From contig NC_057719.1 in the NCBI RefSeq assembly GCF_004010195.1, forward strand, positions 49,591,400-49,655,399: a stretch of 64,000 nucleotides of DNA, in the 5' to 3' direction. The translations under genes were made by a program, and so were the position numbers. This stretch comes from Chiloscyllium plagiosum (lineage: Eukaryota). This document shows, one piece after another, positions 950 to 64,000 of the stretch; the stretch's first letter is position 1; every line of letters begins with the position of its first letter. The notes under the pieces are model-generated. The model was not told the DNA's origin and ran no database searches. It saw only the letters and a program-made list of their open reading frames with translations.

Positions 950-1950
950 ATTGCTGCTCAGCGGCAGCCAAGGGAATAGCGCTGACGCTTATCATGCGAA
1001 GTTAAAAATCACACAACACCAGGTTATAGTCCAACAGGTTTAATTGAAAGCGCTAGCTTTCGAAGCGCTGCTCCTTCACCGGTTACCTGCCAAACTGCGA
1101 TCTTTCATAATGTCATTCAGATAACCTCAAATTCAAACCACCCTCTAATAAAATTCCGAAAAAAAACGTTCAATTACAAAACTTCGCCATTTTGCAGTTG
1201 TTCGGTTAAAAAAAAGTTTCATTGACAACAATCACATTTCGAGTCAGAATTAAAACAGATATATGTGGCTCAGTAAATGAATCTAACCCTCCCTGGGTCA
1301 AGTGGGGGGTGGTGGAGGACGTGTCAACAGAAAACGGTTGGGTCGAGACCGTGACCAGGCGATTAAACCTGTATTAAGAATTAACCAATTGGTTGCAAAA
1401 CAAAATCTTTCCAGCAAGTTTCAGCAGCTCGCCGGCCATGAAAAGGTGAGTGTAAACAGGCAGCTAGAAATCAGCAGCGTTTCAACACTCAAGAGGGTCA
1501 GCGCTAGGCAGTCAGGAGGAAACCCCGGAGGCACACACGTTGCAGGTACATGATGGGAAGGGGGCTATCTGAGCTGAGAGTCAGGGTCTGGAGGTTGTAC
1601 GTCTGACCGCAGCGAGGAGCAATAGGTCGGCACAGCCATCGAGCGGCGCTACTACCCACAGAGCAGCAGCAGCAGGTTCCGGAAGGGAGCAGGGGACACC
1701 GGGGAGAAGCACAGAGACTGAGAGTTGCAGTCATTGGAGGCTATTAACCTGATGAAGAGGCTTACCGACAAAGACCGCTCCTCGGAGATGTTGGGGAAGT
1801 GAGGACCAACTGTGTCATTCAACTTTGACACCATATGGAAATTCGGAGACCGCTGTGGGATAGCCCAGTTAGCGGCCTTCTGTATGACTGTGTGCTCACA
1901 GATACCGAATAGCAGAGGCAGGCCGATGCTTAGGTTTTGCTAAGGATCAA
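950..1950. promoter_or_regulatory. Candidate CpG-rich promoter region
   Basis: Visibly more CpG than flanks; YY1-like CAAAATGGCG on minus at ~1185-1194; CCAAT/ATTGG at 1385-1392; gccggccATGAAAAG|gtgagt at 1431-1451. No gene identified. Confidence 0.3.
999..1082 (-). mobile_element. Penelope pseudo-LTR fragment with degenerate hammerhead
   Basis: Same sequence as the pLTR at 55389-55470 and the reverse complement of 58215-58280 (gttaaaaatcacac...ttatagtccaacaggttt...gcgctgctccttca). Confidence 0.7.
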
Positions 1951-2195
1951 ACCAGTCGGGTTGATAGGGTGTTGGAGTAAGGGCCCAGGCTGGATTCTCC
2001 TAAGATGCCGCGGATAATACATGTGGCTATCAATTTTCATACAGAACAGCCTGAGTCTTCCAGAATGGGACTTCCTCTCCACTTGCTGAATATACAGCTA
2101 GTTTGTGTATTGCAAATGTGTCTAAGGTTGCAGAAAGCTGTCACTCTTCACATTCTCAGGTAGAGGGGAGGCAATGTGCAAAGCTCATGTCATTC

Positions 2196-2291
2196 CAGAG
2201 TCATACTCATAGAGTCATAGAGATGTACAGCATGGAAACAGACCCTTTGGCCCAACCCGTCCATGCTGACCAGATATCCCAACCCAATCTC
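2196..2291 (-). mobile_element. CR1 (HER1-type) LINE 3' tail
   Basis: agagtcatagagatgtacagcatggaaacagaccc... is the reverse complement of the CR1 3' end seen at 17250-17330 and 41560-41640. Confidence 0.8.
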
Positions 2292-2432
2292 AGTGTTCAC
2301 TGAGGAGAGGAACATGATGAATCTTGAGATTAGAGATAGAAGTTTGATTAGTCTGGATCACGTTGACATAAGTAGGGAAGACGTGTTGGGTAGGCTAGAG
2401 GTTATTCAGGATGGATACTCTTTGCTACCTTC

Positions 2433-2481
<49 letters not shown>

Positions 2482-4237
2482 NNNNNNNNNNNNNNNNNNN
2501 NNNNNNNNNNNNNNNNNNNNNNNNNNNNNNNNNNNNNNNNNNNNNNNNNNNNNNNNNNNNNNNNNNNNNNNNNNNNNNNNNNNNNNNNNNNNNNNNNNNN
2601 NNNNNNNNNNNNNNNNNNNNNNNNNNNNNNNNNNNNNNNNNNNNNNNNNNNNNNNNNNNNNNNNNNNNNNNNNNNNNNNNNNNNNNNNNNNNNNNNNNNN
2701 NNNNNNNNNNNNNNNNNNNNNNNNNNNNNNNNNNNNNNNNNNNNNNNNNNNNNNNNNNNNNNNNNNNNNNNNNNNNNNNNNNNNNNNNNNNNNNNNNNNN
2801 NNNNNNNNNNNNNNNNNNNNNNNNNNNNNNNNNNNNNNNNNNNNNNNNNNNNNNNNNNNNNNNNNNNNNNNNNNNNNNNNNNNNNNNNNNNNNNNNNNNN
2901 NNNNNNNNNNNNNNNNNNNNNNNNNNNNNNNNNNNNNNNNNNNNNNNNNNNNNNNNNNNNNNNNNNNNNNNNNNNNNNNNNNNNNNNNNNNNNNNNNNNN
3001 NNNNNNNNNNNNNNNNNNNNNNNNNNNNNNNNNNNNNNNNNNNNNNNNNNNNNNNNNNNNNNNNNNNNNNNNNNNNNNNNNNNNNNNNNNNNNNNNNNNN
3101 NNNNNNNNNNNNNNNNNNNNNNNNNNNNNNNNNNNNNNNNNNNNNNNNNNNNNNNNNNNNNNNNNNNNNNNNNNNNNNNNNNNNNNNNNNNNNNNNNNNN
3201 NNNNNNNNNNNNNNNNNNNNNNNNNNNNNNNNNNNNNNNNNNNNNNNNNNNNNNNNNNNNNNNNNNNNNNNNNNNNNNNNNNNNNNNATCTAGAAGAGGG
3301 CACTGTTGGTATGATCAGCAAGTTTGCAGATGACACGAAGATTAGTGGAGTAGCAGAAAGCATAAGGGACTGTCAGAGAATACAGGAAGATATAGATAGA
3401 CTGGAGAGTTGGGCGGAAAAGTGGCAGATGGATTTCAATTCAGACAAATGTGAGGTGATGCATTTAGGCAAGAGTGAATTATACAATGAACGGAAGAGCC
3501 AAGGGAAAAGTTGATGGGCAGAGAGATCTGGGAGTGCAGGTCCATTGTACCCTGAAGGTTGCTGCACAGGTGGATAGAGTGGTCAAGAAGGCATATAGTA
3601 TGCTTGCCTTCATTAGAAGGGGTATTGAGTATAAGAGCTGGCAAGTCATATTAAAATTGTACAAACATTGGTTTGCCCGCATTTAGAATACTATGTACTG
3701 TTCTGATCGCCATATTACCAAAAGGATGTGGACACTTTGGAGAGGGTGCAGAGAAGGTTTATGAGGATGTTGCCTGGTATGGAAGGTGCTAGCTATGAAG
3801 AGAGGTTGAGTAGGTTAGGTTTATTTTCACTAGAAAAAAGGAGATTGAGGGGGGACCCGATTGAGGTTTACAAAATCATGAAGGGTATAGACAGGGTGGA
3901 TAGAGACAAGCTTTTTTCCAGGGTGAAGGATTCAAAAACGAGTGGTCACGCTTTCAAGGTGAGAGGTGGAAAGTTTAAGGGGGATACATGTGGCAAGTAC
4001 TTCACACAGAGGATGATAGGTGTTTGGAACACGTTGCCAGCAGAGGTGGTAGAGACAGGCAAGGTAGATTCATTTAAGATGTGTCTGGACAGATGCATGA
4101 GTAGGTGGGGAGCAGAGGGATACAGATGCTTAGGAATTGACCGACTGGTTTAGATAGTACATTTGGATTGGCTCAGGCTTGGAGGGCCGAACGGCCTGTT
4201 CCTGGGCTGTAAATTTTCTTTGTTCTTTGTTCTTGTT
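2290..4237 (+). mobile_element. CR1 LINE ORF2 (RT) 3' portion, spanning assembly gap
   Basis: SVFTEE..SREDVLGRL before the gap; [45 protein letters not shown] after it; ends in (ttgttct)n tail. Confidence 0.9.
2482..3287. other. Assembly gap (N run), preceded by poly-C 2434-2481
   Basis: Ns in sequence. Confidence 1.
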
Positions 4238-4433
4238 CTAATCTAGTCCCACCTGCCAGCACCCCGCCCATATCCCTCCAAACCCTTCCTATTCATATAC
4301 CCATCCAAATGACTCTTAAATGTTGCAATTGTACCAGCCTCCACCACTTCCTCTGGCAGCTCATTCCATACATGTACCACCCTCTGTGTGAAAAAGTTGC
4401 CCCGTAGGTTTCTTTTATATCTTTCCCCTCTCA
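4238..4433 (-). mobile_element. CR1 LINE 3' fragment
   Basis: RGERYKRNLRGNFFTQRVVHVWNELPEEVVEAGTIATFK; tail-to-tail with the preceding CR1. Confidence 0.9.
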
Positions 4434-4434
4434 G

Positions 4435-4775
4435 GATGCCGCCTAATGTTCTGGGGACTTGGGTTTGAATCCCATGTGAAGTAAAAGCTGGAATCTTTTT
4501 GACAGGGAGATTTTCCATCCTTACCTGGACTGGCCTACTCCTAACTGCAGAATCACATCATTATGACTGAATCATAGCTGCTCTCTGAAATGGCCTAGCA
4601 AGTCACTCAATTGGAACAAACTGCTACAAAGTCTAAAGAAATGAATTAAACCAGACAGACCACTTGCATTGACCTAAATGTCAGAAATGATAGCAGCAAA
4701 GCCAGTCATATGATCTCTACAATATACTCCGAATGGACATCTAGGGGTTTGTGCCAAAATTGGGAGAGCTGTTTA
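4435..4775 (+). mobile_element. SacSINE1/Deu-like head joined to start of LINE endonuclease
   Basis: B-box gggtttgaatccc; Deu-like ccttacctggactggcctac...ctctgaaatggcctagcaagtcactca; then gtgccaaaattgggagagctg (VPKLGEL). Confidence 0.6.
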
Positions 4776-4777
4776 GT

Positions 4778-5127
4778 TATAGAACATAGAAAAGCACAGC
4801 ACATAACAGGCCCTTTGGCCTATGATGTTGTGTCGAGGTTTAATCCTAATGTAAAATATAGTACCTACGCACCCCTCAACTCAGTGCTAACCATGTGCAT
4901 GTCCAGTAGTCGCTTAAATGTTCCCAATGATTCTGCTTCCACCACCACAGCTGGCAACGCATTCCATGTGTTCACAACTCTCTGCATAAAGAACCTACCT
5001 CTGACATCTCCTTTATACCTTCCTCCTAATATCTTCAGACTATGATTCCTCGAACGAATCAATCCTGCCCTGGGGAAAAGTCTCTGGCTATTGACTCTAT
5101 CTATGCCACTCATTATTTTGTATACCT
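4778..5127 (-). mobile_element. CR1 LINE 3' fragment
   Basis: GIDRVNSQRLFPR...DVRGRFFMQRVVNTWNALP; (tatgttc)-type tail. Confidence 0.85.
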
Positions 5128-5229
5128 GTTATGAAACAGCCTAATATTCTGCAAGGGATGATTGCATGAGTAAAAGTATGTCTCAGATACCATCATCATC
5201 CCACTGGCAGTACAGATCCACCAGAGGTA

Positions 5230-7535
5230 ACAGCATAGTGGTACAGTCAGAAGGGAGTCGCCCTGGTAGTCCTCAACATTGACACTGATTTGGTGGGGTG
5301 GGTAACACCAGCAGTTAGAACAAGTGTCAGAATAGTCTTGGGGAATGGACCCTCATGAGCAGTCCCAGTATTGATAGCCAATGTACCAGAAAATATTATT
5401 GGCATGGACTTATTAAAAGGTACCACCTTGCAAACCCCACTAGACAAATTCTCTTTTAGTATACGCGCTGTGACCATTACCGTTGGCAAGGCAAAATGGA
5501 AACTCCTCATTATCCCTCCACCCACACGGGTGGTTTCAATGGAACAGAATCGTATTCCGAGAGGAAATTGGGGATACTACATCGGGCTGTTAGCTGCAGG
5601 CATTGTGACACATACAGTATCTGTGTGCAATAGACCAATATGGCCTGTGAAGAAGTCTGATGCAAGTTGGCGAATGACAGTTGATTATCACCAACTCAAC
5701 AAATACTCTCCTTCACTGTCAGTGGTTGTGCCTGATGTGGTCACTATTATAGAAAGTTTGGCATGGGGCCAGATGCCTGGTTTGCCATTATTAATCTAGC
5801 AAATGCCTTCTTTTTGATACTGATAGCCCCAGAATCACAAGCGCAGTTTGCTTTTGCATGGGAGGGTCACCAATTACCTCCTGTTGGCTACCACAAGGAT
5901 ACAAACAAAGCCCAACCTTATGCCATGGGCTAGGAGCAAAGGACTTTGATATGTGTCCACTGCAACCAGACATTCATATAGCACATTATATTGATGACAT
6001 CTTAATCCAGAGACCACGGTGGCAGAAGCTCTGGTCACACTGGTGCAAAGGCTGAGAAGTGAACCCAAAGAAGTTACAGGGACCAGCACAATCAGTGCAG
6101 TTTTTGGGCATTCAGTGGACAAAAGGGAATAGAGTTATCCATGAAAAGAAATGGCTGTCCCAAGTAGCAAGACTAAGGCACACAAATTTATAGGTCTGCT
6201 CAGATATTGGTGCAGATATATACCTCACTTGACCATGTTACTAAGACCTCTGTATAACATCACTCAAAAGAAAGCACCGTTTGAATGGGGCAATGAAAAG
6301 CATGAAGCATTTATGGCTGCTAAAGAGGCTGTAGCATTAGCACTGCCCCTGGCTCCCCAAATACCTGGCATCCCCTTTGAATTACAAGTATTAGTAGTGC
6401 AAGATGTAGCCACATGGAGCTTAAGGCAGAGACAGAAGGGGAAAGCAATACCTTTGGGTTTCTGGTCCAGAAAGCTGACTGAGGCAGCTACACGTGGAGC
6501 AGGAGAGTCAATGTTTCGAGCATATGCTCTTCATCAGGACATGTGGTGCTGGAAAAGCACAACAGGCCAGGATGTTGCCTGATCTGTTGTGCCTGATCTG
6601 CTGTGTTTTTCCAGCATCAAAGTCTTCGACTCTGATCTCCAGCATCTACAGTCCTCAGCTTCTCCTGAGGCAGCTACATGTTACACACCATTTGAAAAGC
6701 AAATTCTGGCCTACTACTGGTCTTTAGCAGAGACTGAAGGGCAGTTGGGCAAGGACAAAGTGTTCCTCATACCTGAATTACCCATTCTGACATGGGCGTT
6801 ATATGACATAGTGACCTACAAGGTCAGTACAGCCTAACAAAGCTCCATTGTAAAATGGAAATGGTACATAACTGATCAAGCCAAGAAGGGAAAGGAAGGG
6901 GTTGCCAAACTCCATGTGCAAATAGCTGAATACCCATCTGGTGAACAAACTCAAAGTTCTGACCTGGCCATGCCTGCATCTCCAATTCAATTGGGCCTTC
7001 CATTCAAACACTGCCTGTGGATACTCGTTACTGTGCTTGGTTCACTGATGGATCAGCCATCTGGAAGACTGGTTCAAGGTGGTGGTGAGCAGCTATACAT
7101 AATCTCTCCACACAGGTGATTATCCATAGTGAAGGAGATGGAAGAATGAGCCAGTATGCGGAATTGGCAGTTGTGGTCCTAGCGCAGGAAGAAGAGAGTC
7201 AGTGTCTGCACATTTGTACTGACTCATGGGTGATGGCCAATGAGATGGCTGTATGGATGCAAACCTGGTAGTCACATGACTGGAAGTTTTCTGGAAAGCC
7301 CCTGTGGGGAACCGAACTGTGGAAACAAATATGGGTAAAGGAACAGCACATAAAAATTGCTGTAAACCAGTGGATGCCCATATGAAGGATGGTTCTGAAT
7401 CTGCTGATCACAACAATACTGTAGACAGAATAGTAAAAGTCCGAACAGTTGAAGATGCATCCCAAGAGTATCACATTGGAAAATGGGCTCCTGGAAAGTG
7501 AGGATGTTTAAGGTATCATGGCATTCACATCACTC
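5230..7535 (+). mobile_element. Decayed endogenous retrovirus pro-pol, class III (ERV-L/ERV-S-like)
   Basis: Protease end ENIIGMDLL; RT PIWPVKKSDASWRMTVDYHQLNK, LPQGYKQSPTLCH, HYIDDILI; tether PLGFWSRKL..YTPFEKQILAYYWSL; RNase H AWFTDGS, SQYAELA, CTDSWVMANEMAVW, GKPLWG. Multiple stops and frameshifts. Confidence 0.85.
6496..6664. mobile_element. Short Penelope-derived insert with hammerhead core, inside ERV pol
   Basis: TSD ctgaggcagctaca(c/t)gt at 6479-6495 and 6665-6681; minus strand CTGATGA-A-GAGC-ATAT-GCTC-GAAA at ~6514-6537. Confidence 0.8.
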
Positions 7536-7539
7536 GTCA

Positions 7540-8240: not shown

Positions 8241-8749
8241 TTTTCTATTCATTTATGGGATGTGGGCTTCACTAGCTGAGCCAGCAATTATTGCCCAACT
8301 CTAGTTGTATCTCATTGAGATGAACTGATTTATTGAACTGCAGTAGTCTATTTGGCATAGCTCCATTCACTCAGGAACACTGAAAGAAAGGCAGTATATT
8401 TCCAAATCAGAATGTGTGGCTTGGAGCAGAACTTTCACGTGGTAGTTTTCCCATGTATCTGCTGCATTTGTACTTCTTGATGGTGGCTTTTTTTTGCTCA
8501 AAGGAAATGTTGCTGTGTTAGGATTATTGCAATTATGTAGAATTTACATTATGTAATAACACAATGCAAAAAATGACTGAAGACAAATGTCAACCAGATA
8601 AGAATAAGGCCTCTTGTAAGCTCTTTTATAATGTCACTGATCTTCAAACAACACTTCATTTATAGGTTGCAATTGAATCAATACTTAATAAACTCCCTTT
8701 CAAATAATAGATGTTGAGTCATTACTTTTGTTTTGTCTTACTTATTCCT

Positions 8750-11663: not shown

Positions 11664-11763
11664 GCAGAAGTGGGTACTGCAGATGCTAGAGTAGAGTCAA
11701 GATTAGAGTGGTGCTGGAAAAGCACAGCAGGTCAGGCAGCATCCAAGGAGCAGGAAGGGCTTT
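11664..11763 (-). mobile_element. Short Penelope-derived insert in Gypsy LTR
   Basis: TSD tgaaaatag at 11655-11663 and 11764-11772; body matches the left arm of 44718-44770. Confidence 0.7.
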
Positions 11764-14973: not shown

Positions 14974-15221
14974 CTATAATTCCTGATCAAAGAAGTCATC
15001 AAACACTAAGATTCGTTCGGTCTTAGTTCTCATCAAACTGCGCCGTGACTGTCTGGTATTATCCATCCAATATGCCAAGGAATCATTGCTGGAACTATTG
15101 CTGGAATTGTTCCATGTTGTTGGATTCTTCATAAATTGTTTACTTATCCTGAAGTGTTTATTATTATCCGCATTATCATTTATGAAGAGCATTGGTGAAA
15201 TAAAGTCATTCCATGGATTAT
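14974..15221 (-). CDS. CCDC198: CCDC198 last coding exon with stop
   Basis: ttttttaatttag|ATAATCC; phase 1 joins the previous exon (G+AT = D). Ends ...WNNSSNSSS...RRSLMRTKTERILVFDDFFDQEL-TAG, matching the human C-terminus 'WDSSSSDS...RALVRTRTERIPLFDEFFDQE'. Confidence 0.92.
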
Positions 15222-15749
15222 CTAAATTAAAAAAGGAGAATTAAACAAAACATAAATTGTTCATAATTCTATTTAAATGGAACAAGATGTGCTTTTGAAC
15301 CTTTGAATAATGGGCTGTAGATTTTCTGCTCCATTGTCCATATCTAGTGTTTAATTCCTGGTATAATAAAATTAAAATTGGGGCACAGATACACTAGGCC
15401 AGATTTACAATGTAGGTTTGGGAGACTGACAAATGGCCTATTTGAGCAGGAGGGAAGCTCAGTGTCGCTGGAGACCTACCTGCTTGGTGCCAACAACAAA
15501 GGCAGACAGAAGCCATGTTGGCAGTTGCCTAAACCTTGCCAATTAGTGTGGTCAGTTCCTCAAAGTAGAACATGCTGGAAAGCAGCCATGGACAAGAGGG
15601 TAAGAACAGCCCTAATGTTAGCTTCATTGGACGCACAGAATAAATTTAAAAATGAATGTCAAGCAGTCTACGGAAGGGCACAGCTGAGCATATGCAAACC
15701 ACAGCCAAGTTTGTGTCTTTTTTACCACCATGCTCCCTCTGGAATTACG

Positions 15750-19121: not shown

Positions 19122-19260
19122 CTTTTGATGAAGAGTCACCAGACTTGAAATATTAACTCTGCTTTCTCTCCACAGATGCTATCAGATCTGCTGAGTTTCA
19201 CCAGCAATTTCTGTTTTAGTTTTAGATCTCCAACATCTGCAGTTCTTTGTTTTAGTTCAA
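19122..19260 (+). mobile_element. Short Penelope-derived insert, degenerate hammerhead
   Basis: tTGATGA-agagtcaccagactt-GAAA; tgaatgta repeated on both flanks. Confidence 0.6.
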
Positions 19261-19647: not shown

Positions 19648-19815
19648 AAAACCAAAAATGGTGGAAATCACAGCAGGTCAGACAGCATCTGATGAAGAGT
19701 CATCTGGGCTCGAACGTTAGCTTGCTTTCTCTCCATGGATGCTGCCTGACCTGTTGTGATCTCCAGCATCTTTTGTTTTCAGTAATGATTCCAGTATCTG
19801 CAGTAATTTGTTCCG
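19648..19815 (+). mobile_element. Short fold-back Penelope-derived insert with hammerhead core
   Basis: 18-bp TSD acatcaggagcagtactg (19630-19647, 19816-19833); CTGATGA-agagtcatctgggctc-GAAcgtta; arms cagcaggtcagacagcatc / gatgctgcctgacctgttg. Confidence 0.8.
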
Positions 19816-27559: not shown

Positions 27560-28950
27560 TAGCTAAATATTGATCCATAAAATAGGAAAAGGAAGAAAGA
27601 ACAAATCCTGGGATCTACAGACCAGACGCATGAAACACATTAACTCTTTCCAAAAGTAGTGAGAAAACATCATCTAATGGCAGCAAATATAATAAAATAT
27701 CAATGTGGATTTCAAAGGCTAACTGGGCGAAAGTGAGGACTGCAGATACTGGAAATCAGAGTCAAGATTAGAGTAGTGCTGGAAAAGGGCTCCTGCCTGA
27801 AACGTCGATTTTCTTGCTCCTCGGATGCTGCCTGATCTCATGTATATCTGACCTAATTTGTTAAAGAGCTAACTGCATCAAGCATTAAAAGTCATTTATT
27901 TGCACTTTTAAAAAGCCCTTGATAGCATCACATATGGTAGCATAGTATGGTTCTGATAAAAAATAGAATATATGGAGCAAGAAGACAAATAACTGAACAG
28001 ACAGTAAAACTCTCTTTAAAATAAAGTTAGAAAGCAGTGAGTAGGATTAAAGAGTAATTATTCACAGGGATGTAGAATCCATGAGTTGACTTCCATCCAT
28101 CTGTGCTAGAATCATGGTCATTCAAGATTTATGTCAATGACATGGGCTTGGGCTTCAGTAACTCAACATGAGCACAGCTAAAATTTGCAAATGACACCAA
28201 AACTAGTGAAGAGGGGACATGTACAGAGTAGTGTAACTAATACTGAGGGAGAATACAACAGAGTAAAAGAAGACAGTAGATAAATTGCAGTCTAAAGAGC
28301 AAATAAACATGAACATTGATAAAGGTGAGGCAATGAACTTTAGGAGAAAAAATACAGAAAAAATGGCTACATTTTTAAAGTAAGAGACTGAATGGTGTTC
28401 AAGAGCTAAGAGATCTAAGGATGCATGTAAACAATTCATTAAAATAGTGCCATAGACCAGCAAATCAACGAACACTGTAAACAAAGCACTGGAATTTATT
28501 TCTACAGAATTAAAATCGAAAGACCTCAAGTTATGTTCATGTCAAAACTATTAAAAAGGCCACTGAAGAAAGTGCAAAAGCAATTTACGAAGAAGGTACT
28601 TAAGGTTAAAGAGTTTTTTTTTCCTTTTGAAAAGCTGAGAGAAGACCAAATAAATTATATAAATTATAAATGGGTTGGGCAGATGGATGTGAAGAGAATA
28701 TTTCCACTTGTGGGAAAATACAAACTGAGGTCATATATACAAGATGTTTGCTAATAAATCCAGTAGGGAAATAGGAGAAAGTGGAATTTGCTGCTACCAG
28801 AAATGGTTGCACCAAATAGCTCAGAGAAAAGTAATAAACAGATATGTCAAAGGGATAAAATGAAATAGATGAAATGGGAGAACATTCATGGAAAGCACAA
28901 ATGCTAGCTTAGACTAGCTGGGCTAATGACCTGCTGCTGAATGGTATATT
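27560..28950 (+). mobile_element. Highly degenerate CR1 RT/3' end with Penelope-type insert at ~27725-27840
   Basis: aatcctgggatctacagacca, aaatttgcaaatgacaccaaa (KFANDTK), LKKVQKQFTK. Confidence 0.55.
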
Positions 28951-30989: not shown

Positions 30990-31085
30990 CTTCCTGAAGA
31001 AGGGCTTATGCCCGAAACGTCGATTCTCCTGTCCCTTGGATGCTGCCTGATCTGCTGCGCTTTTCCAGCAACACATTTTCACCTC
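30990..31085 (+). ncRNA. Minimal type I hammerhead ribozyme in a short Penelope-derived repeat
   Basis: CTGAAGA (30994-31000)-A-GGGC-TTAT-GCCC-GAAA-CG-TC: intact CUGANGA/GAAA/NUH core, 4-bp stem II, palindromic ACGT. Confidence 0.7.
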
Positions 31086-31727
31086 TGCCCTTCCACCCAT
31101 TTGGCAGTTATATGGCTCAATTGCACCAGATTTCTATGCAGTTTTTTTTTACTACTGAATTCACATTAGGATTGGAATATGACCCCAGGGCATTAGCCTG
31201 GTCTCTACATTACTACTGTTTTCTCAACATGGTCCATGGTCAATTTTCAATAATTCAGCTTTGACTTGAACTTGTTCTAGATAGGTCTGCCCACCACCTG
31301 CTTTCAGCTGCTCAGACCTTTTGCTCCATCTGAAATCCTTCTGCCATTATCATCAGACCTACTACCCAATCTGGTCTACCTCCTTCATACCAGTGCTCAA
31401 CACTGCAGCTTATCCACCTCCAGTCTCATAGATATTCCTGGCCATCCTTCTTCTGTTTCCTAAAATCCATTACATATCTTTATATAGTCAAAAAAATTAC
31501 TCTTTAACTTGCTACTGTGACTAGCATTATTATGTATAGACTTTCTATCACTTAAATTGGGGCTAGCTGACAATGAAGATTAATCTTGTACTTGTATGGT
31601 ATTCCTAAGATGATGACAATGCATCTGAGAGAACTGAGCAACCACCCTGATTTCTATCTACTGCATTGCAGACATTTAGCTGTAAAACCAGACACACAGA
31701 CACTTGATAGTTAAAACAATAACTGAC

Positions 31728-34865: not shown

Positions 34866-34869
34866 GACT

Positions 34870-35310
34870 CTCCTACATGGCTTCAAAACTTGGACTACAT
34901 GTAGATGATATCTCAAGACCTTTGAGAAGTATCATCAATGTTGTTTGAGATGGATTCTTAGCATCAGCTGGGAGGACTGGCATACTAACATAAGCATCCT
35001 TAAAGCAGCTAAAAGTATCAGGATCAAGGACATGATCATCTGAAACCAACTCCGGTGAGCTGGGCACATGTTTAGGATGCCTGATTTTTGACTGCCAAAG
35101 TAAATCAGTTTTGCCCAGCTCAAAGGAGGCCCTTGAAACAGAAGAGGACAAAGGAAGCATTTCAAAGATTCATGAAGGCTTTCCTCAGACAATACGACAC
35201 TGATATCAATGCATGGGAGACCCTTATTCAAAAGAAATTGATTAGGAGGAAGCTCTTGTATAAATTATTTCAGGACATCCATTGGCAAGACGATGTGCGA
35301 AAAGAAGCTG
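34870..35310 (+). mobile_element. RTE-clade LINE C-terminal fragment
   Basis: WTTCR*YLKTFEKYHQCCLRWILSISWEDWHTNISIL...NQLR*AGHMFRMPDF*LPK, the RTE 'LRWAGHV.RM....LPK' motif. Confidence 0.75.
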
Positions 35311-35698: not shown

Positions 35699-36089
35699 TT
35701 AGACAATAAGATTGAATGGCATTAAGGTTAAATAGCTCTTAAGGTTTCAGTTGGCAAAGGATATCTGATTGTCCAATGAAGTCTTTCATTATAGGTAGCA
35801 GTTTGAGAGCAATCCGAAGCTATCTCCTTTTGACTCTTCTATCAACAGTTAGCCTCAATGTTTCAGACTGCTAAGCTAACCTGAAATGTTTGTGCATCCC
35901 GCATGACAGTGTTGAGCTTGAGAGAGGCACTGCTTTGTGCAGCTTTTCTATATCAACCAATTAGCAATGAGGGAGAGTGGACATACTGTACATTTCACAA
36001 CCTTGAACAGCTGTGTAATCCTTACACATTGCATTTAGCCTCAGTGTTGTTCATATTAAAGTGTAATGAGTAGAGTGTAAAGTGTTATG

Positions 36090-36483
36090 AGGAAGGGTCA
36101 CTCAACCCGAAATGTTAAGGCTGATTTCTCTCCAAAATGCTGCCAGACCTACTGAGCTTTACCAGCAATGTCTGTGTTTCTGATTTACAGCATCCACACA
36201 TCTCTTCCAGACATGCCCACCTTGAAGAAGTTCTGTTCCTCTCTCTGATTTTCCATTCCAATCTTCTTTCTTGTCCACCACTAATTTCACAGTCATTAAT
36301 TTCACTGTCACTCCTGGTGTTTGACAAGGTATTTGCTAAAACCCACTTCCAAAGCCACATCACATTGCTCAGTGACCGCCTCCAGCAGATCTGAGGAAAG
36401 GTCACTTGACCCAAAACGTTAACTCTGATTTCTCTGCTCAGATGCTGCCAGGCCTGCTGAGCTTTTCCAGCAATTTCTGCTCT
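36090..36483 (+). mobile_element. Mini Penelope-derived element with two direct-repeat pLTRs, each with a hammerhead-like core
   Basis: TSD tgtaaagtgt(t/a)atg at 36076-36089 and 36484-36497; repeats ~36087-36180 and ~36391-36483. Confidence 0.7.
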
Positions 36484-44717: not shown

Positions 44718-44930
44718 GCTGAAAATGTGTTGCTGAAAAAGCCCAGCAGGTCAGGCAGCATCCAAGGAGCAGGAGAATCGACGTTTTGGGCATGAGCCCT
44801 TCTTCAGGAATGAAGGGCTCATGCCCGAAACGTCGATTCTCCTGCTCCTTGGATGCTGCCTGACCTGCTGCGCTTTTCCAGCAACACATTTTCAGCTCTG
44901 ACCTCCAGCATCTGCAGTCCTCACTTTCTT
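44718..44930. mobile_element. Fold-back Penelope-derived insert with two inverted hammerhead-like cores
   Basis: ~88-bp inverted arms 44715-44802 / 44812-44899; 16-bp TSD ctaatgaaataacaga (44702-44717, 44931-44946). Confidence 0.88.
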
Positions 44931-50297: not shown

Positions 50298-50996
50298 TGC
50301 TTATATTCATATAATCAGTCGTAACAAGTTACATTGTGTTCAGCTATATTTCTTCTTTCATAGCTTGGATACAATTTAATGTGAAAATATCAGATAAATC
50401 TAAGAAGGTTGTGTAAAGGATTGAAGAGCTGAAAATTAAAGAAATCCAAACAATGGACTGCGAGTCCACTTTGAGTCTGGACTGTTTTCAATTCAGCCAA
50501 AAAACACAGGGTACCCAGTTCTCTTTGAAGTTACACTTAATCCTTATCCAGTTTAGAAATTGTGGACCTGCAAGTTTTAGAAGTTTGAAGAAGTTAAAAT
50601 CCAAAATTAGTACCCCTGTTAATTTTAGCTACTTCAAGAAAGTGAGTATTTTTAGGAAAGAGGATTCAAAAATTATGTACAGCCCAAAAATGTAAGTAAA
50701 AGGTGCCACCACATGCATAATGACTATGTGGTATAACAAATCTTTTCCAGCAGCCTACTTGGTGACATGACAGAAGTTATTAACACTGACCATTCACAGC
50801 TCAAGGTGAGGTCCCTTGTTCAAGTACTGTGTGGATTGAAAGTCATAGTCTGAAAAATTAACTTCTATTTGTCTCTCCTCAAGAATGTTACCAAATCTGA
50901 CTATTTTTCATATTTTCTGTTTTTCAGGAGATTCCAACATCTGCAGTATTTTGTTTAAGCCATATGGATTGTTATTTACTCATCTACTTGGAGAAA

Positions 50997-53330: not shown

Positions 53331-53339
53331 TAAAGCTTC

Positions 53340-55352: not shown

Positions 55353-58282
55353 TGGTTTGGAGGTGTCGGTGTTGAACTGGGATGTACAAAGTTAAAAATC
55401 ACACACAAGATTATAGTCCAACAGGTTTATTTGGAAGTCGAGCTTTCAGAGCGCTGTTCCTTCATCAGGTGGTTGTGGAGTATAAGATCATAAGACACAA
55501 CATTTATTGTGTGTGTGTGTGCTCGGCCACTCTGCGTTGTTGCCTGTCCCGAAGTCCGCCTTGGAGGATGGTCACCCAAAGGTCCAAGGTCGAATGTCCC
55601 AGGCCGCTGAAGTGTTCCCTAAATGCGAGGGAATACTCTTGGCTGGCAATAGTGTGGTCTCCATTCATCCATTGCCGTAGCCTCTGCTCGGTCTCACCAA
55701 TGTACCATGCCTCAGGGCATCCTTGCCTGCAGCATATGAGATAGACAACGTTGACCAAGTCACATGATTACCTGACATGTACATGGTGGGTAGTATCCCC
55801 ACGTATAATGGTGGTATCCATATCGACACTCTGACACGTCTTGCAGCGGTTGCTATGACAGGGTTTTATGGTGTTGTCCTGAAGGAAGGGCAATTTGCTG
55901 TGAACAATGATCTGTAGTGGTTTAAAGGTGAGTAGTGGAGGCGTGGGGAAGGTCTTGATGAGGTGCTCATCCTCATCGATAACGTGTTGCAGGCTGCGAA
56001 GAATATGGCATACTCATTCATTCCCGGGAAGTACTGAACAACCTGTCGGTTGCAGCTCGTGTCTGTCTCCTGAGGAGGTCATTACGGTTTCTCGCAGTTG
56101 TACATTGGAACTGACGATCGACGGGTTGAGCATTGAACCCCATTCTTATGAGGGCATTCTTGAATACTTCCAAGTGCACATCACATTCCCCCTCATCTGA
56201 GCAGATCCTGTGTATGCGTAGGGCTTGTCTGTAGGGGATGGCTGTTTTAGTATGTTTAGGGTGGAAGTTGGAGAAGTGTAGCATCGTGAGGTTATCTGTG
56301 GGTTTGCGGTACAGTGAGGGACTGAAGTGCCCATCCTTGATAGAGATGCATGTGTCTAAGAATGAGACAGATAGTAGAGAGTAATCCATGGTGAGTTTGA
56401 TGGTGGGATGAAACTCGTTCATATCACTGTGTAGTTTCATCAGTGACTCCTCGCCATGGGTCCAGAGGAAGAAAATGTCATCAAGGTATAGTGTTGGATT
56501 GGAGATCCTGCGTAGAGAAGAAGTCTCGTTCAAACTTGTGCATGAAGATATTGGCATAGTGGGGTGCAAATTTGGTCCCCATGGCTGTTCCGTGTATCTG
56601 GATGAAGAACTGGTTATCAAAGGTGAAAACATTATGGTCGAGGATAAAGCAGATGAGTTGTAGGATGGTGTTTGGAGATTGGCAGTTGTTGGTGTTGAGT
56701 ACTGAGGCTGCTGCCGCAATGCCGTCATTGTGGGGGATGCTGATGTAGAGTGCTGCAATGTCCATTATGACAAAGAGAGTTACCGGTTCGACTGGTCCTG
56801 GGTGTTGAGTTTCTGTTAGAAATCTGTAGTGTCGCCACAGAAGCTGGGGGTCCCTGTACTAAGCATTTCAAGATGCCTTTGACATAGCCAGAGAGGTTCT
56901 CACACAGAGTTCCATTGCCTGATACAATGGGATGTTCTGGTGTGTTGGCTTTGTGTGTTGGCAGTGTGTTGGCAGTGAAGTCACCTACACAAGGAGTTAG
57001 TGGGATGAGTGCGCGTAGGGAACTCTGAAGAACTGGATCCAAAGTCCTGATCAATGTGTTTAGTTCAACAGTATAGTTCTTTGGTCGGATTGGCCTGTAG
57101 TTGCCTGTAGTGTTCCTGGTTGTTCAGTTGTGAGTACACTTCCTGGTAGAAATCTATTCTATTCTGAATGAAGAATGCTCCTCCTTTATCTGCTGGTTTG
57201 ATGGCAATGTTGTGATTGGTTTTAAGAGCATGGATGGCGTTGCGTTGTAATCGGGTGAATGTTTTACTCTACCTTGTGGGTGTAGCTGATGAATCTGGCA
57301 TTTATATATTTCCTGACGGTTTGAGCATACATGTCAAGCCCAGGGCAGCAGCCCTCTGGTAGGGTCCAAGTTGACTCCTTCTTTGGTCACCCCTCTATGA
57401 ATTCCTGTAATAACTGTTCTGGTTCCTCGGTGGGCTCATTGGGATCACTACTGGCATCTTGAAAGAATTCCCTGAGTTTCATTCGGAGTTCTGTACCTAT
57501 GGGTATGGCCTCAACCAGGACCTTGGGTTCATGTCACACCACAAGTGACCCCACTGCACTACACATTCTCTCACACATACGCACACAAGGGCATGCACGC
57601 ATGCGCACCCATACACACACACGCGTGCACTAGCACAAGCACACAAACTCCTATAGACCCATATACTCACGCAAACACTCTCTCATACACAAGCTCTCTC
57701 TCATATACTCACACATACACACCTCCTACACTCACACCCACACCTGCACCCTCTCACAGACTTATACCCCTTTACACTCATATGCATACACACACACACA
57801 CTCTCTCACAGACACTCATACACCCCACACACACACATATATAAGATTGTGGAGCAAATTTGTACTTGCAGAATTACATTTTATTTTGCTCAAAAACTGC
57901 TTGAATCTATGTTAGATTCTGTAAATCCCTTTTTTGGAAATAGAATCTGTCTGAACATCGGGGCACAAATAGATAGACTATAACCTCACACTTTCAATCC
58001 ATTATCTGAGCTGACATGGCATTTATTGTTAAACTTCACTTGAGAATGTAACTTTAACTTTCATTTACATATGAAAGAACTGAAACCAACATTGTCATTC
58101 TAAAAGGTGAGAGACTTAACTAACAATACAAGTCATTTTCGATATATCATTTCAGTTGCATCACACTGTAAACTTTTACTATAAATCTTGTGTCTTAAGA
58201 TCTTATACACCACAACCACCTGATGAAGGAGCAGCACTTCGAAAGCTAGTGTTTCCAAATAAACATGTTGGACTATAACCTA
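55353..58282 (-). mobile_element. Penelope-like element (RT + GIY-YIG) with an inverted upstream pLTR
   Basis: IKPADKGG; MDIAALYISIPHNDG; QIHGTAMGTKFAPHYANIFM; YLDDIFFLW; LYRKPTD; GIY-YIG NVVYLICC..WYIGETEQRLRQWM. 57480-58282 is a plus-strand copy of the 3' end (GLNQDLGFMSH*, CA-rich tract, pLTR). 12-bp TSD atgctgtatttc (55341-55352, 58283-58294). Confidence 0.93.
58213..58255 (+). ncRNA. Minimal hammerhead ribozyme in Penelope pLTR
   Basis: cac-CTGATGA-aggagcagcacttc-GAAA-GC-TA-gtg: core, stem I cac/gtg, palindromic AGCT. Confidence 0.6.
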
Positions 58283-58980
58283 ATGCTGTATTTCAGGAGT
58301 TAAAGGCCCCAAAACCACTGACAATGACGGAGGAGAAAATAAATCTATAAGGTCAGAGAGGTAATGTGCCAGGTGGGGAACAGAAGTAAGGTGCCAAGTG
58401 GGTAAGAGATTATAGGGTGTCAGGTGGGTGTAGGAGATAGGCTGCCAGGCATATGTGGGAGGTAGGATGCTAGATGGGTACCTATGGTAGGTTGGGAGGA
58501 GGGTCAGTTATTGTCAGGAGTGGTATTTGAATGCAGCAGGGCCAGACTGGGTGGGAAGATAGTACCTACTCAAGCAGGCTGGGGCTTTAGGCAGCATTGG
58601 TGGAAGATTATTGGGTTCAACAGCTATCATAGAGTCAATGATGATTTTGGGAGAAAGTTGATAGTTACCAAGGGCTTCGAATAGGTTTTTATCTCACCTT
58701 TCCAGGGTAACTATTGAGCTTAAATGAATTTGAACCCTCTAAATTCTCTGAGATTAATTTATTCTTTTGGAGGGATCCAGACACAGGGAAATTCCTCACT
58801 GGAAAATTTAACTTCATGGGCAATTCTCAAGGGTTCTGTTGCATTGGGGATTCTGTACGGTCCTGACACACAACAACTGTCCATGTTGCTCCAGCAACTC
58901 TCTGACCATCAAATATTTAGGCCACTGTAGTGCTGTAACAAATCTATCTGCTTCTCCTGACTTACTTTTCAGGTACTTCA

Positions 58981-59241
58981 GGGCAGCATGGTGGCTCAGT
59001 GGTCAACACTGCTGCCTGGGTTCAATTCCAGTCTTGGGCAACTGTCTGTGTTGAGTTTGTGCATTCTCCCTGTGTCTGTGTAGGTTTCCTACAACAGTAC
59101 AGGAATATGTAGGTTTGGCAAATTAGCCAGGGGAATGCAGGGTTATAGGGTGGGGTGGGGGGGGGTATTGGATGCTCTTCAGAGGGTCAGTTTGGATTCG
59201 ATGGGCCAAATGGCCTGCTTTCACATTGTAGGGATTCTATG
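58981..59241 (+). mobile_element. V-SINE, diverged
   Basis: gggcagcatggtggctcagtgg...gggttcaattcc; V-domain remnants; gtagggattctatg tail. Confidence 0.8.
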
Positions 59242-59554
59242 AAGTCAGTTAGGACCCTCTAAAGCCTGCAGTTGTAATTCAATTGGGGACTTTTTCAAAG
59301 AGTTCCAGACGAGGTAATTGCCCATCAAGAGTTTCCATTTTCTGTACAATTCCCATATATTCAATTCTACATGCTCCAGGGGAATATCTTTCAGTGTACA
59401 TCCAGCCTCCAACTGTCCTCACTCCTGAACATTAGGGCAGTCATTTCTCAGGACCTGACATCAGCTTGAATTTCTATCGGTTCTTACTTAATTAATTTAG
59501 AACTGACTCAGCATGTTGGCAGCTGCAAAGCAGTTTAGTTTAAATATTTCTCAC

Positions 59555-59637
59555 CTCCAATTTGCGAGGAGGATGTTTTTTGATAATGCTCCTTTCCCCA
59601 TCATCCAAAGGGCTTTCAAATGAGGAGGCGTGAGGTA
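59555..59637 (-). CDS. CCDC198: CCDC198 (C14orf105/FAME) internal coding exon, most 5' exon seen in window
   Basis: Minus strand tttttcaag|TACCTCAC...AAATTGGAG|gtgaga; 83 nt, phase 1 to 0. Translates xPHASSFESPLDDGERSIIKKHPPRKLE, matching remembered human CCDC198 'FDIPLEHRETSIIKRHPPQRLQ'. Confidence 0.88.
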
Positions 59638-59739
59638 CTTGAAAAATGAAAACATAAAGAAAAACAGAGAGTCATACAGTTTTAACAGCATGTCCACGTG
59701 GTCATCAAGCATTATGTTGCATGTTCTAATCCCACTTTC

Positions 59740-60250
59740 CAGCATTTAGCCTATTGTTTTGCACTTGCATTTCAAGTGGAAATCTAAATACGTCTTAAAT
59801 ATCTTAATGGTTCTTACATGAACCATCCTTTCAGTAGTGAGCTCCACATATACACAATCCGCTAGGTGATTTATTTTTCTTTCAAATCTCCTTTAAACCT
59901 GCATACCTTAAATCTGTGCCCCCGGTTGCTGGCCCCCCTACTAAGGGGAAAGATTTCTCCCTATCAATGCCCTTCATTACTTTGTACACTTCAATCAGGT
60001 CCCGCCTCAGCCATCTCTGCTCTAAAAAATACAACTCCAGCCTATCCAGTCTCTATTCATAGCTGAATCACTCTATTCAGCAACATCCTGGCGATCTCCT
60101 TCACACAGTCTCTCGTGCAATCACATCCTTCCTACAGAATGGCGACCAGACCTACACACAGTACTTCAGCTGCAGCCTAACTCATGACCTCCCTGCTCTT
60201 ATCGTCAATGCCTTTATAATAAAGGCAAGTATCCTATATACCTACTGAAC
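59740..60250 (-). mobile_element. Degenerate CR1 3' fragment
   Basis: Reverse complement of LKYCV..WSP and RGHRFKV-type sequence. Confidence 0.65.
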
Positions 60251-60261
60251 CAGCTGTCTTG

Positions 60262-60512
60262 GGGTGGCTCAGTGGTTAGCATTGCTGCCTCACAGTGCCA
60301 GGGACCTGGGTTCAAGTTCAGCCTTAGGCGACTACCTGTGTGGAGTTTGTACGTTCTCTATTTGTCTATGTAGGTCCCCAGTGGGTGCTTTGGTTTCCTC
60401 CCACAGTTCAAAGATGTGCAGGTTAAGTGGATTGTCCAGTGTCCAGGGATGTGTAAATTAGGTGGATTAGCCATGGGAATTACAGGGTAGGAGGCTGAGT
60501 CTGGGTGGGCCA
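60262..60512 (+). mobile_element. V-SINE, interrupted at its 3' part by the Tx1-like LINE
   Basis: gtggctcagtggttagcattgctgcctcacag...gggttcaagttc; V-domain. Confidence 0.85.
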
Positions 60513-62882
60513 CTTCCTTTTTTTTTCAAAAATATACTTTATTCATAAAAATATTTTGATGATCTGTACAATTGGTCATGCCATACATACATAAACATTC
60601 AATTTCTTTGCATACAGAGATCGAGTAATCATTCATATATGCATACATATATCCATATGTTTAGCTGAGGCGTCATCAGAGCCCACTTACTGCGTGGGCC
60701 GCCTGTTCTTTGGCAGGCAGACATTACACGGTGGTCTTTCACCACCGCACCTTGGCAGCAGCTGCCCCGAGCTTCAGTGCGTCCCTCAACACGTAGTCCT
60801 GGACCTTGGAATGTGCCGGTCCGCAACACTTAGTCGGGGTCAGCTCCTTCAGCTGGAAGATCAACAGGTTCCGGACAGACCAAAGAGTGTCTTTCACCGA
60901 GCTAATGATCCTCCAGGCACAGTTGATGTTCGTCTCGGTGTGCATCCCGGGGAACAGACCGTAGAGCATGGAATCCCGCGTCACGGAACTGCTCGGGACG
61001 AACCTCGACAAATACCACTGCATTTGTCTCCAGACTTCCTTTGCATAGGCACATTCCAGAAGGAGGTGTGTGACAGTCTCGTCCCCCCCGCAGCCGCTTT
61101 GAGGGCAGCGTGCGGTGCGGCAGAGAGTCCGGGCGTGCATAAAGGATCTCACAGGCAGAGCCCTTCTCACCACCAGCCAAGCCATGTCAGGGTGCTTGTT
61201 GGAAGGTTCTGGCGGTGAGACAGTCTGCCAAATGGCTTTGACAGTCTGCTCAGGGAGCCGCAAGATAGGATCCGCCCTCTCCTTTTCCCGAAGGGTCTCA
61301 AGGACACTACATGCTGACCGTTTCGTGATGGACTTGTGGTCAAAGGTGCTTTTCTTCATAAATTTCTCTACGAAGGACAGGTGATACGGAACGGTCCAAA
61401 TACTTGGAGCGTTCCGCAGCAGCGGGGCCAGGCCCATCCATCGCAACTCCGGGGACAGGTAGAACCTCAGTACGTAGGATCCACACACAGCTTGATGCAG
61501 CCACACACAAAGGTGGCCATCAGGGTGAGGGTGGCAATGGGTGTGTTTTTTCCCCCGTTGCTCAGAGCTTTGTACATCAAGTCCCTTCGAACCCTGGCCA
61601 TCTTTGATCTTCATATAAAATGGAAGATAGCCTGGGTGACTGCGACCGCACAGGTCCTGGGAATAGGCCAGACCTGTGCCACATATAAAACAGTGACAGT
61701 GCCTCACACCTGATGACCAGGTTTTTACCCGCGATGGAGAGCAACCGTAGCTTCCATCTGCCCAGTTCTGCCTCACTTTCTTGAATGCTCCTCCCAAGAC
61801 TTGGCACACGCCCCAGCCTCTCCCAGGTGGTAAGTCCTGATGGTGAAGGGGATGAAGGATTGGTCGGCTCAGTTCCCGAAGAGCACGGCCTCAATCTTGC
61901 TTCGGTTTACCTTGGCCCCCAAGGCCCATTCGAACTGGTCACATATACACATCAGTTTGTGCACGGACAGCGGATCCAAGCAGAAACGGCGACATCATCC
62001 ATGTACAGGGAGGCCTTAACCTGCAGGCCCTCGCTGCCAGGAATAGTCACCCCTCTCAGGCTCACATCCTTCCTGATGTACTCAGCAAATGGCTCTGTGC
62101 CGCACACAAACAAGGCAGGAGAGAGAGGGCAGCCCTGCCTGATTCCAGATCTGACTGGGAAGCTGTCTGTTTCCCACCCATTGATTGAGACTGCACTGAC
62201 AATGTTGGTGTAGAGCAGTCTGATCCAATTGCAGATTCCCTCCCCAAAGCCCATTTTGGAGAGAACTTCTCTCATATACCTGTGTGATATCCTGTCAAAG
62301 GCTTTCTCCTGGTCCAGGCTGATCAGGCAGGTGTCCAGACCCTTGTCCTGTACGTAGGCGATCGTATCCTTGAGGAGTGCAAGACTCTCAGCGATCTTCC
62401 TGCCCGGTACAGCACAGGTTTGGTCAGGGTGAATCACCGACCCCAGAGCAGACCTGACCCGGTTGGCTATGACCTTTGCCAAGATTTTGTAATCTGCATT
62501 TAATAATGAGATTGGTCTCCAGTTTCTGATTTCCTCCCTCTCCCCCTTCCGCTTGTAGATGAGGGTGATGATGCCTTTCCTCGTGGATTCACTCATGGTA
62601 CCTGCCCGAAGCATACTGACATACACCTCCAGTAGGTCCTGGCCAATCAAGTCCCACAGAGCAGAATAGAGCTCGACTGGTAAGCCCTCGCTCCCGGGAG
62701 TTTTATTCTTTTCGAAGGACTCGAGGGCCTTGGTCAGCTCGTTTAGAGATAGCGGCTGGTCCAGTCTCTCCCGTGTTCTGTCATCTAAGACCTCTGTGAT
62801 TGAGGACAGGAATGACTGTCGGTCGGCTTCGAGTCATACAGACTGGCATAGAAGGATTTGCCGATCCTCATAACGTCAGTCC
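60513..62882 (-). mobile_element. Tx1/L1-clade LINE, 5'-truncated ORF2 (RT + C-terminal Cys/His domain)
   Basis: NWRPISLLNADYKILAKVIANR, SLDQEKAFDRISH, GIRQGCPLSPALF, YMDDV, CPQSGCGGDETVTHLLLEC; AATAAA and A-tail; 16-bp TSD gagtctgggtgggcca (60497-60512, 62883-62898). Confidence 0.95.
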
Positions 62883-62898
62883 GAGTCTGGGTGGGCCA

Positions 62899-64000
62899 GA
62901 GTGGTGAATCTGGATCAGTGGTGTTGGAAGAGCACAGCAATTCAGGCAGCATCCGAGGACAGGCAAAATCGATGTTTCGGGCAAAAGCCCTTCATCAGGA
63001 ATAAAGGCAGAGAGCCTGAAGCGTGGAGAGATAAGCTAGAGGNNNNNNNNNNNNNNNNNNNNNNNNNNNNNNNNNNNNNNNNNNNNNNNNNNNNNNNNNN
63101 NNNNNNNNNNNNNNNNNNNNNNNNNNNNNNNNNNNNNNNNNNNNNNNNNNNNNNNNNNNNNNNNNNNNNNNNNNNNNNNNNNNNNNNNNNNNNNNNNNNN
63201 NNNNNNNNNNNNNNNNNNNNNNNNNNNNNNNNNNNNNNNNNNNNNNNNNNNNNNNNNNNNNNNNNNNNNNNNNNNNNNNNNNNNNNNNNNNNNNNNNNNN
63301 NNNNNNNNNNNNNNNNNNNNNNNNNNNNNNNNNNNNNNNNNNNNNNNNNNNNNNNNNNNNNNNNNNNNNNNNNNNNNNNNNNNNNNNNNNNNNNNNNNNN
63401 NNNNNNNNNNNNNNNNNNNNNNNNNNNNNNNNNNNNNNNNNNNNNNNNNNNNNNNNNNNNNNNNNNNNNNNNNNNNNNNNNNNNNNNNNNNNNNNNNNNN
63501 NNNNNNNNNNNNNNNNNNNNNNNNNNNNNNNNNNNNNNNNNNNNNNNNNNNNNNNNNNNNNNNNNNNNNNNNNNNNNNNNNNNNNNNNNNNNNNNNNNNN
63601 NNNNNNNNNNNNNNNNNNNNNNNNNNNNNNNNNNNNNNNNNNNNNNNNNNNNNNNNNNNNNNNNNNNNNNNNNNNNNNNNNNNNNNNNNNNNNNNNNNNN
63701 NNNNNNNNNNNNNNNNNNNNNNNNNNNNNNNNNNNNNNNNNNNNNNNNNNNNNNNNNNNNNNNNNNNNNNNNNNNNNNNNNNNNNNNNNNNNNNNNNNNN
63801 NNNNNNNNNNNNNNNNNNNNNNNNNNNNNNNNNNNNNNNNNNNNNNNNNNNNNNNNNNNNNNNNNNNNNNNNNNNNNNNNNNNNNNNNNNNNNNNNNNNN
63901 NNNNNNNNNNNACTCTCTCCCCACCCCTACCCTCCTCTAGCTTATCTCTCAACCCTTCAGGCTCTCTGCCTTTATTCCTGATGAAGGGCTTTTGCCCGAA
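62899..64000. mobile_element. Penelope-type pLTRs in inverted orientation flanking a gap, both with hammerhead cores
   Basis: 62976-63042 is the reverse complement of ~63934-64000; CTGATGA-A-GGGC-TTTT-GCCC-GAA at 63978-64000 (+) and 62970-62998 (-). Confidence 0.75.
63043..63911. other. Assembly gap (N run)
   Basis: Ns in sequence. Confidence 1.

Follow-up and report, generated by a model that had tools for sequence, protein, structure and literature searches.

The 64,000-nucleotide (nt) window analysed here, a stretch of contig NC_057719.1 of the shark Chiloscyllium plagiosum, holds exons of the gene CCDC198 on its minus strand and a set of hammerhead ribozyme cores borne by inserts that resemble the ends of Penelope-like elements (PLEs). 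Cores were seen at 1082 (-), 6537 (-), 19125 (+), 19689 (+), 30994 (+), 36087 (+), 36391 (+), 44807 (-) with its partner arm 44810 (+), 55468 (-), 58220 (+), 62998 (-) and 63978 (+), each position being that of the first core base, except that for 44810 it marks stem II. All core positions listed in the earlier note on this DNA were recovered. BLAST with core-centred queries sorted them into family A (30994, 44807/44810, 62998/63978 and 6537), family B (1082, 55468 and 58220) and family C/D (19125, 19689, 36087 and 36391). The CCDC198 exons were located via known motifs and then by a match to PF15398; a search of eight further candidate open reading frames (ORFs) gave no PF15398 match.

A strict pattern (CTGANGA, a stem II of at least three pairs, GAAA) matched six times, against 0.2 expected from ten second-order Markov simulations; with one core mismatch allowed and at least four pairs required, 12 matches were found against 2.5 expected in such simulations. 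The strict match at 35160-35188 (-) lacks the palindrome that follows GAAA in the families and is probably due to chance; it and the other loose motif matches were treated as chance, since they lack both palindrome and family tail and the covariance model did not back them. That model, trained on seven A and C cores, found four held-out A and D sites; two held-out family B sites (55437-55471, E 0.018; 58217-58251, E 0.4) came next and outranked every background match, and 1082 (-) was not found. Pairs were counted on the seven A and C rows only, the MAFFT alignment having shifted those of family B by one base. In these seven, 96.4% of the helix II cells and 71.4% of the helix I cells are paired, and two of the four pairs of helix II show two-sided changes. 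Over all helices, two-sided changes occur in four of nine pairs, slid controls being at most 41% paired; since the seven rows are related, these represent few between-family changes and not many independent events. The palindrome itself is ACGT in A and C and AGCT in B. An Rfam scan, proposed as a check in the earlier note, came back blank for the hammerhead family among seven matches up to E = 5. Unconstrained folding of monomer and dimer did not yield the hammerhead fold, a result that is expected for such short stems and lends no support either.

These features support, from sequence, the assignment of the motifs as minimal type I hammerheads with a palindromic, zero-loop stem III, of the kind carried by the pseudo-long terminal repeats (pLTRs) of Penelope elements. 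They fit the published consensus of minimal hammerheads (Cervera and De la Pena 2014, PMC4209133) in having CUGANGA followed by an extra base, a G-C base of helix II, GAAA, a zero-loop palindrome (CGU, GCU), C, U or A at H17 and a short helix I; helix II is short here, at 4-5 bp, unlike in that set. Stem I has 3 bp in 6537 and 58220, 2 bp and a U-U in family A, and three of four pairs in 36391. Its reading is limited by the fact that bases upstream of 36087, 19125 and perhaps 30994 derive from the target site; those upstream of 36087 proved to be part of the target-site duplication (TSD) and were rejected as native stem I.

CUGANGA, the extra base, helix II and GAAA are complete in 30994, 58220, 55468, 62998 and 6537, the others bearing point changes. 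In an integrity table of 15 rows, from which 63978, truncated where the window ends, and three rows with a shifted register were dropped, the 4-nt palindrome is kept in seven of the 11 scored rows, and the core, palindrome, cleavage triplet and stem I are all kept only in 30994 (+) and 58220 (+). Most of the cores are broken. Among the defective copies, 44807 (-) carries G12A, 62998 (-) has lost palindrome and triplet, and 55468 (-) is down to one pair in stem I.

The 13 cores belong to only nine insertions, and three more related inserts bring the total to 12. Four core pairs each form part of a single insertion: TSDs tie 44807 to 44810 (16 nt), 55468 to 58220 (15 nt) and 36087 to 36391 (14 nt), while 62998 and 63978, which face each other across a gap in the assembly and have upstream sequence 97% identical, are probably one insertion. 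TSDs of 8-18 nt with no more than one mismatch flank ten of the 12 insertions, the weakest being that of 30994 (8 nt with one mismatch); none was found in the search around 1082, and the 62998/63978 insertion runs off the window. By-eye coordinates, counted relative to the first core base, place the 3' ends of 11 listed arms at +83..+92 (five), +112..+135 (five) and +62 (one). The short inserts show normal PLE anatomy, with inverted arms and an optional 30-40-nt tail.

Family B is linked to a protein-coding element by the insertion at 55356..58282. Its minus arm holds a decayed reverse transcriptase (RT)-endonuclease ORF (57332-55522), the core 55444-55468 and the tail, and its plus arm, from about 57490, holds the last ORF codons, some 680 nt of 3' untranslated region and the complete core 58220-58244 with AGCT palindrome and CUA triplet; the ORF and both cores are enclosed by one TSD. 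The remnant aligns to residues 1-618 of a 643-residue shark protein (E 7e-146), its best homologues being shark proteins of 68-73% identity with RVT_1. A coral homologue carries GIY-YIG according to Pfam, and the endonuclease frame of the window has a CX4CxxC linker and a GIY-YIG-like VVY..YIG motif. The element ranks among the endonuclease-positive (EN+) PLEs and, on the basis of the linker motif, would be of the Neptune type. The short copy at 1082 (-) is 84-86% identical to these ORF-linked ends, and family A includes copies whose shared sequence reaches at least 44 and 66 nt upstream. Together with the four core pairs that are single insertions, these observations do not support the proposal that several non-autonomous families were mobilised independently. 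At a CA repeat (55510-55522) the minus arm lacks the last part of the endonuclease ORF together with the bulk of the 3' untranslated region, both of which are retained in the inverted arm.

A notable property of the inserts is their 5' boundary. Judged by eye, the 5'-most end lies within -6..+7 of the first core base in ten of the 12 insertions, a clustering with a probability of at most 4e-8 under a uniform null over 134 positions. The remaining two reach beyond -44, and none of the 12 starts at the predicted cut site (+28 or +29). All 11 translated arms of families A, C and D have an ATG at 46-53 nt beyond the core, from which a similar short peptide start can be read. The frame of 36087 stays open for 85 codons (36137-36391) and reaches the second core, which occurred in 509 of 20,000 shuffles of an 86-codon stretch; should this frame represent the ORF N-terminus, the template of the 36087 arm would have been an element mRNA, copied at its 5' end. 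Consensus folding of the sequence downstream predicted a single hairpin of 5 bp that lacks two-sided changes, and so does not support a conserved protein-binding structure. We favour, as the explanation of the boundary, an element RNA with a discrete 5' end where the ribozyme begins. In Drosophila Penelope the start lies about 120 nt upstream of the end of an intron adjoining the ribozyme (PMC2377424), so that a start at the ribozyme edge would not be general for PLEs.

Reads and contigs were mapped at 88% likeness on 62870-63042, a single family A end. RNA run X21, of which about 2% was sampled, placed 972 reads; RNA run X22 placed none and carries no weight as a test. For 57900-60250, no RNA data set containing it was listed. 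DNA contigs were placed in numbers (27,542 from X2 and 30,659 from X13) that make family A very abundant. The ACGT palindrome is the family consensus (335 of 458 X21 reads; 71% and 53% of contig depth), and most other variants of the core region are CpG transitions; no change repairing the third stem I pair was found among the rows listed. Starts or ends of molecules do not pile up anywhere, the cut site included, in what is a weak test of cleavage given a fragmented polyA library. If the usual strand convention applies, 286 element-sense and 128 antisense reads extend over the base that follows the predicted cut, indicating that uncut sense RNA is common. Depth falls from about 475 to about 110 across -4, and at that position (63002) loose ends were counted in 151 reads and in 436 and 431 contigs (agreement 0.33 and 0.32). 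These data only suggest a boundary at the ribozyme edge. The core-breaking A15.1 change (62975) occurs in 84 of 300 element-sense and 1 of 165 antisense X21 reads, and at about 0.1% of DNA contig depth; the variant possibly represents one well-expressed locus.

Coordinates of the insertions and of the CCDC198 exons are compiled in Table 1. The target site of the 36087/36391 insertion is present twice upstream (36057-36089), 21 nt apart, as one exact 12-mer and one mismatched copy, and the insert begins directly after the second. The arms at 44748-44866 form a near-perfect hairpin of about 100 bp per arm with a weak microRNA-precursor score, which as intronic RNA could be double-stranded RNA or an editing substrate; the microRNA-like Rfam matches on it fall far under gathering scores and were attributed to the inverted repeat. 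The insert at 6496-6664 splits, in its RNase H region, a decayed pol remnant of the long terminal repeat retroelement or endogenous retrovirus kind (5359-7500, plus strand; RT_RNaseH_2, E 1.7e-06). The pair at 62910-64000 adjoins an L1/Tx1-type element (60739-62833, minus strand; RVT_1, E 1.5e-29; zf-RVT, E 2e-09), into which it probably inserted. Assembly gaps lie at 2482-3287 and at 63043-63911, and the latter, between inverted family A arms, may hide an ORF. The G+C-rich segments at 1-230 and 1400-1950 may, by impression from translations, belong to the promoter of a neighbouring gene.

Table 1. Penelope-derived insertions and CCDC198 exons in the window (offsets with a sign count from the first core base).
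Feature	Position	Strand	Remarks
Family B short copy	999..1084	-	Degenerate core; begins at core, stops before tail; downstream of CCDC198 stop
A-like composite	6496..6664	-	Core 6514-6537, its palindrome broken, with an inverted tail arm and a short tandem piece
TSD of insert 6496..6664	6479-6495 and 6665-6681		17 nt
Family A insert, absent from earlier note	11664..11760	-	Tail arm from ~+33; 12-nt inverted stem II piece (+5..+16), junction by eye; 12-nt TSD
Last CCDC198 coding exon in ORF	14974..15240	-	PF15398 positions 246-296 at 14977-15240
Family C short copy with tail	19125..19260	+	Begins at core, C3 changed; 11-nt TSD
C-like (D) insert	19648..19815	+	Inverted tail arm joined to forward arm, which begins at first core base 19689; GAAA short by one A; 18-nt TSD
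Family A insert, absent from earlier note	27726..27867	+	Inverted tail arm and forward arm, the latter beginning at stem II (27785); 8-nt TSD
Family A short copy	30991..31086	+	Core 30994-31017 complete, with palindrome ACGT, a GUC triplet and a stem I of 2 bp; cut predicted after 31021; antisense to CCDC198
Family C insertion	36090..36483	+	Direct cores 36087 and 36391, both broken; 14-nt TSD, 1 mismatch
Family A head-to-head insertion	44718..44930	both	Minus arm with core 44784-44807, G12A, tail-less; plus arm begins inside core, with tail; 16-nt exact TSD
Degenerate family C copy, absent from earlier note	50839..50962	+	Begins at stem II; 9-nt TSD
Penelope-like insertion, 2.9 kb	55356..58282	both	15-nt TSD
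Internal CCDC198 exon in ORF	59540..59671	-	PF15398 positions 73-103 at 59543-59671
Family A second-subfamily head-to-head pair	62910..64000	both	Arms on either side of N gap 63043-63911; minus core 62975-62998 has a broken palindrome, plus core from 63978 is truncated at the window end

Since CCDC198 lies on the minus strand, minus-strand copies within its introns would be present in its pre-mRNA, as the earlier note had proposed. This does not extend to 1082 (-) and 6537 (-), which lie downstream of the stop codon. Three sense cores are left that are in introns or probably so, each of them defective; 62998 (-) is probably, not certainly, intronic, the mapped exons covering PF15398 positions 73-103 and 246-296. 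Both complete cores, 30994 (+) and 58220 (+), are antisense to the gene. Within the CCDC198 span, all six single-orientation insertions are antisense, against ten plus and nine minus among control repeats (Fisher two-sided 0.057); counted by arm, the strands stand at 10 versus 3 (p 0.09). The antisense excess is a lead from one gene, not a result. The controls were drawn from 17 fragments and ten copies, found with three queries, which we take to be CR1-type long interspersed elements and tRNA-headed short interspersed elements (SINEs), respectively; inside CCDC198 these are unbiased, at 6/6 and 4/3. Nothing points to a regulatory role of the inserts in CCDC198.

Taken together, we consider it probable, at roughly three chances in four, that the cores are minimal hammerheads within the pLTR ends of at least three shark PLE families and that the inserts are abortive or truncated products of autonomous elements rather than a class of mobile ribozyme in their own right. 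The PLE endonuclease would nick both strands and each nick would prime reverse transcription at one of two internal start sites 30-40 nt apart, with TSDs, head-to-head arms and the optional tail as the outcome; this priming scheme is known from other PLEs, the anatomy itself being visible here. The window shows the template to be uncut RNA, since copies hold the whole core and none starts at the cut site. Most copies halt at the 5' edge of the ribozyme, most likely with the element RNA starting there, an option to which we give slightly better than even odds among those for this step. Priming near the RNA 5' end would yield 90-135-nt run-off copies, and priming at the 3' copy long ones. Once inserted, cores would decay, largely at CpG, and single copies, being devoid of stem III, should stay uncut unless paired through ACGU/AGCU or helped by a PLE protein, as in other PLEs. 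Separate non-autonomous families are not needed.

Several points weigh against this interpretation. Microhomology blurs the junction offsets by several bases, and the copies were gathered with core-centred queries. RNA starts do not pile up at the ribozyme edge either, and both the depth step and the loose ends are confounded by an A subfamily with different upstream sequence. Homologue searches with the 36137-36391 frame were blank, atlas matches being at most 0.83, and the ATG frame is already closed by a stop in two of 11 arms. As to the coding element, RVT_1 falls under the Pfam cut-off in the ORF of the window, being above it in the homologues, and the endonuclease frame of the window itself drew no GIY-YIG call from Pfam. 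Also, ORF-linked copies of A and C/D are absent within the 64-kb window.

The position of the 5' boundary could be accounted for differently if the RNA reached further upstream and the RT stalled or switched template at the folded ribozyme or at a bound protein. Ends do spread over about 14 nt around the junction of stem I and core, both arms of the insertion at 44808 break there, and opposite-strand joints (62990/63007 and 62996/63006) are found in reads and contigs. Four arms, however, continue through a core over lengths of at least 44 nt, the longest being 1.9 kb, and in vitro the product length of the anole PLE tracks the RNA 5' end through the ribozyme (PMC11167929), so that stalling appears doubtful. 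A fixed 5' end, a size of 90-135 nt and individual TSDs could also be expected if the short inserts were true non-autonomous families, akin to SINEs or retrozymes, with masters that begin at the hammerhead and PLE protein supplied in trans. The very high copy number (27,542 and 30,659 contigs) would suit such families, as would the lack of an ORF-linked or long-upstream C/D copy in the window; moreover, non-autonomous PLE derivatives are known, one chondrichthyan included (bioRxiv 10.64898/2026.07.22.740005), and pLTRs can act in trans (PMC3846280). We nevertheless regard this as unlikely, for short and long forms coexist within the same families (1082 versus the ORF-linked B ends), each of three families would require a master with an identical start, and no tandem array with two complete cores, the hallmark of active non-LTR retrozymes in that preprint, occurs in the window.

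The orientation of the copies raises the further possibility that host pre-mRNA is cleaved by the ribozymes, as trans-dimers or with the aid of PLE protein, and that complete sense cores are purged from introns. The six antisense insertions, the damage to all three sense cores and the strand imbalance of the A15.1 change (84/300 versus 1/165 reads) would agree with it. Against it, the statistics are borderline and come from one gene (10 versus 3 by arm), most antisense cores are damaged as well, reads of both strands span the cut and their ends do not accumulate there, a single expressed locus may account for the A15.1 variant, and published dimer rates are low (PMC4209133); purging is thus rather improbable. 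Finally, the missing Rfam match, the 2-bp family A stem I with its U-U mismatch and the failure of unconstrained folding might lead one to see chance or repeat-derived look-alikes with no ribozyme ancestry. The excess of strict matches (6 versus 0.2), the two-sided changes between families in stems I, II and the palindrome, the position in pLTRs and the exact fit to a published consensus that includes examples with a 2-bp stem I (PMC4209133) make this highly implausible.

Both the class and its abundance as solo truncated copies have been known since 2014. As here, minimal hammerheads were described mostly as solo copies tied to truncated PLEs and as opposite-strand pairs 100-700 bp apart, numbering thousands per genome in coelacanth and Xenopus, with low cleavage even in dimers (PMC4209133). 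In the sections and the part of the alignment consulted, a 5' boundary at the ribozyme edge is not described and no chondrichthyan row occurs, and 'shark', 'Callorhinchus', 'Chiloscyllium' and 'Leucoraja' are absent from supplement file 2. The inserts resemble EN+ PLEs (Arkhipova et al. 2013, PMC3846280; Craig et al. 2021, PMC8557442) in head-to-head arms within one TSD, a 30-40-bp tail on one arm, partial tandems and an adjacent inverted 5'-truncated copy. The ORF and inverted pLTR structure of 55356..58282 likewise conforms to these elements, the linker to the CX2-5CxxC of the Neptune clade, and the ATG of A/C/D to a pLTR that holds the first ORF codons (PMC3846280). In contrast to rotifer pLTRs of about 180-220 bp, the short unit here measures about 90-135 nt and is mostly ORF-less. 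Anolis Poseidon PAc (Frangieh et al. 2024, PMC11167929) is similar in that its tail is set by two internal RT start sites, priming occurs from both DNA strands, the RNA copied is uncut and RNA-seq ends are absent at the ribozyme site. Its RT copies uncut RNA to the 5' end, ribozyme mutants still insert and protein-assisted cleavage was shown; its ORF starts at stem II, unlike the candidate A/C/D start 46-53 nt after the core start. Non-LTR retrozymes (Li et al. 2026, bioRxiv 10.64898/2026.07.22.740005), reported in one chondrichthyan genome, share the type I hammerhead, a PLE pLTR origin and non-coding monomers. They are tandem with at least two complete ribozymes, whereas the sole direct pair here, 36087/36391, is broken and not a repeated unit. 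Within the literature consulted, mostly papers free of subscription, none has the hammerheads of shark PLEs, or the 5' boundary seen here, as its subject.

The one feature that stands out as unexplained is the shared start of all short copies at the leading edge of the ribozyme. In PLEs the hammerhead has weak activity in vitro, and the one reconstituted system does not require it for insertion. In shark genomes, with many dated copies and several families, the statistics of boundaries and strands could serve to test both the starting point of PLE RNA and whether the ribozyme ever cuts host transcripts. A speculative synthesis, which we consider rather unlikely, is that shark PLE RNAs start at the first bases of the hammerhead, that internal priming close to this 5' end mass-produces ribozyme-headed run-offs of 90-135 nt and that trans-cleavage, made possible by abundant copies or by the PLE protein, selects against sense copies in introns. 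If true, the shark genome would hold a record of PLE transcription start and of ribozyme activity in vivo.

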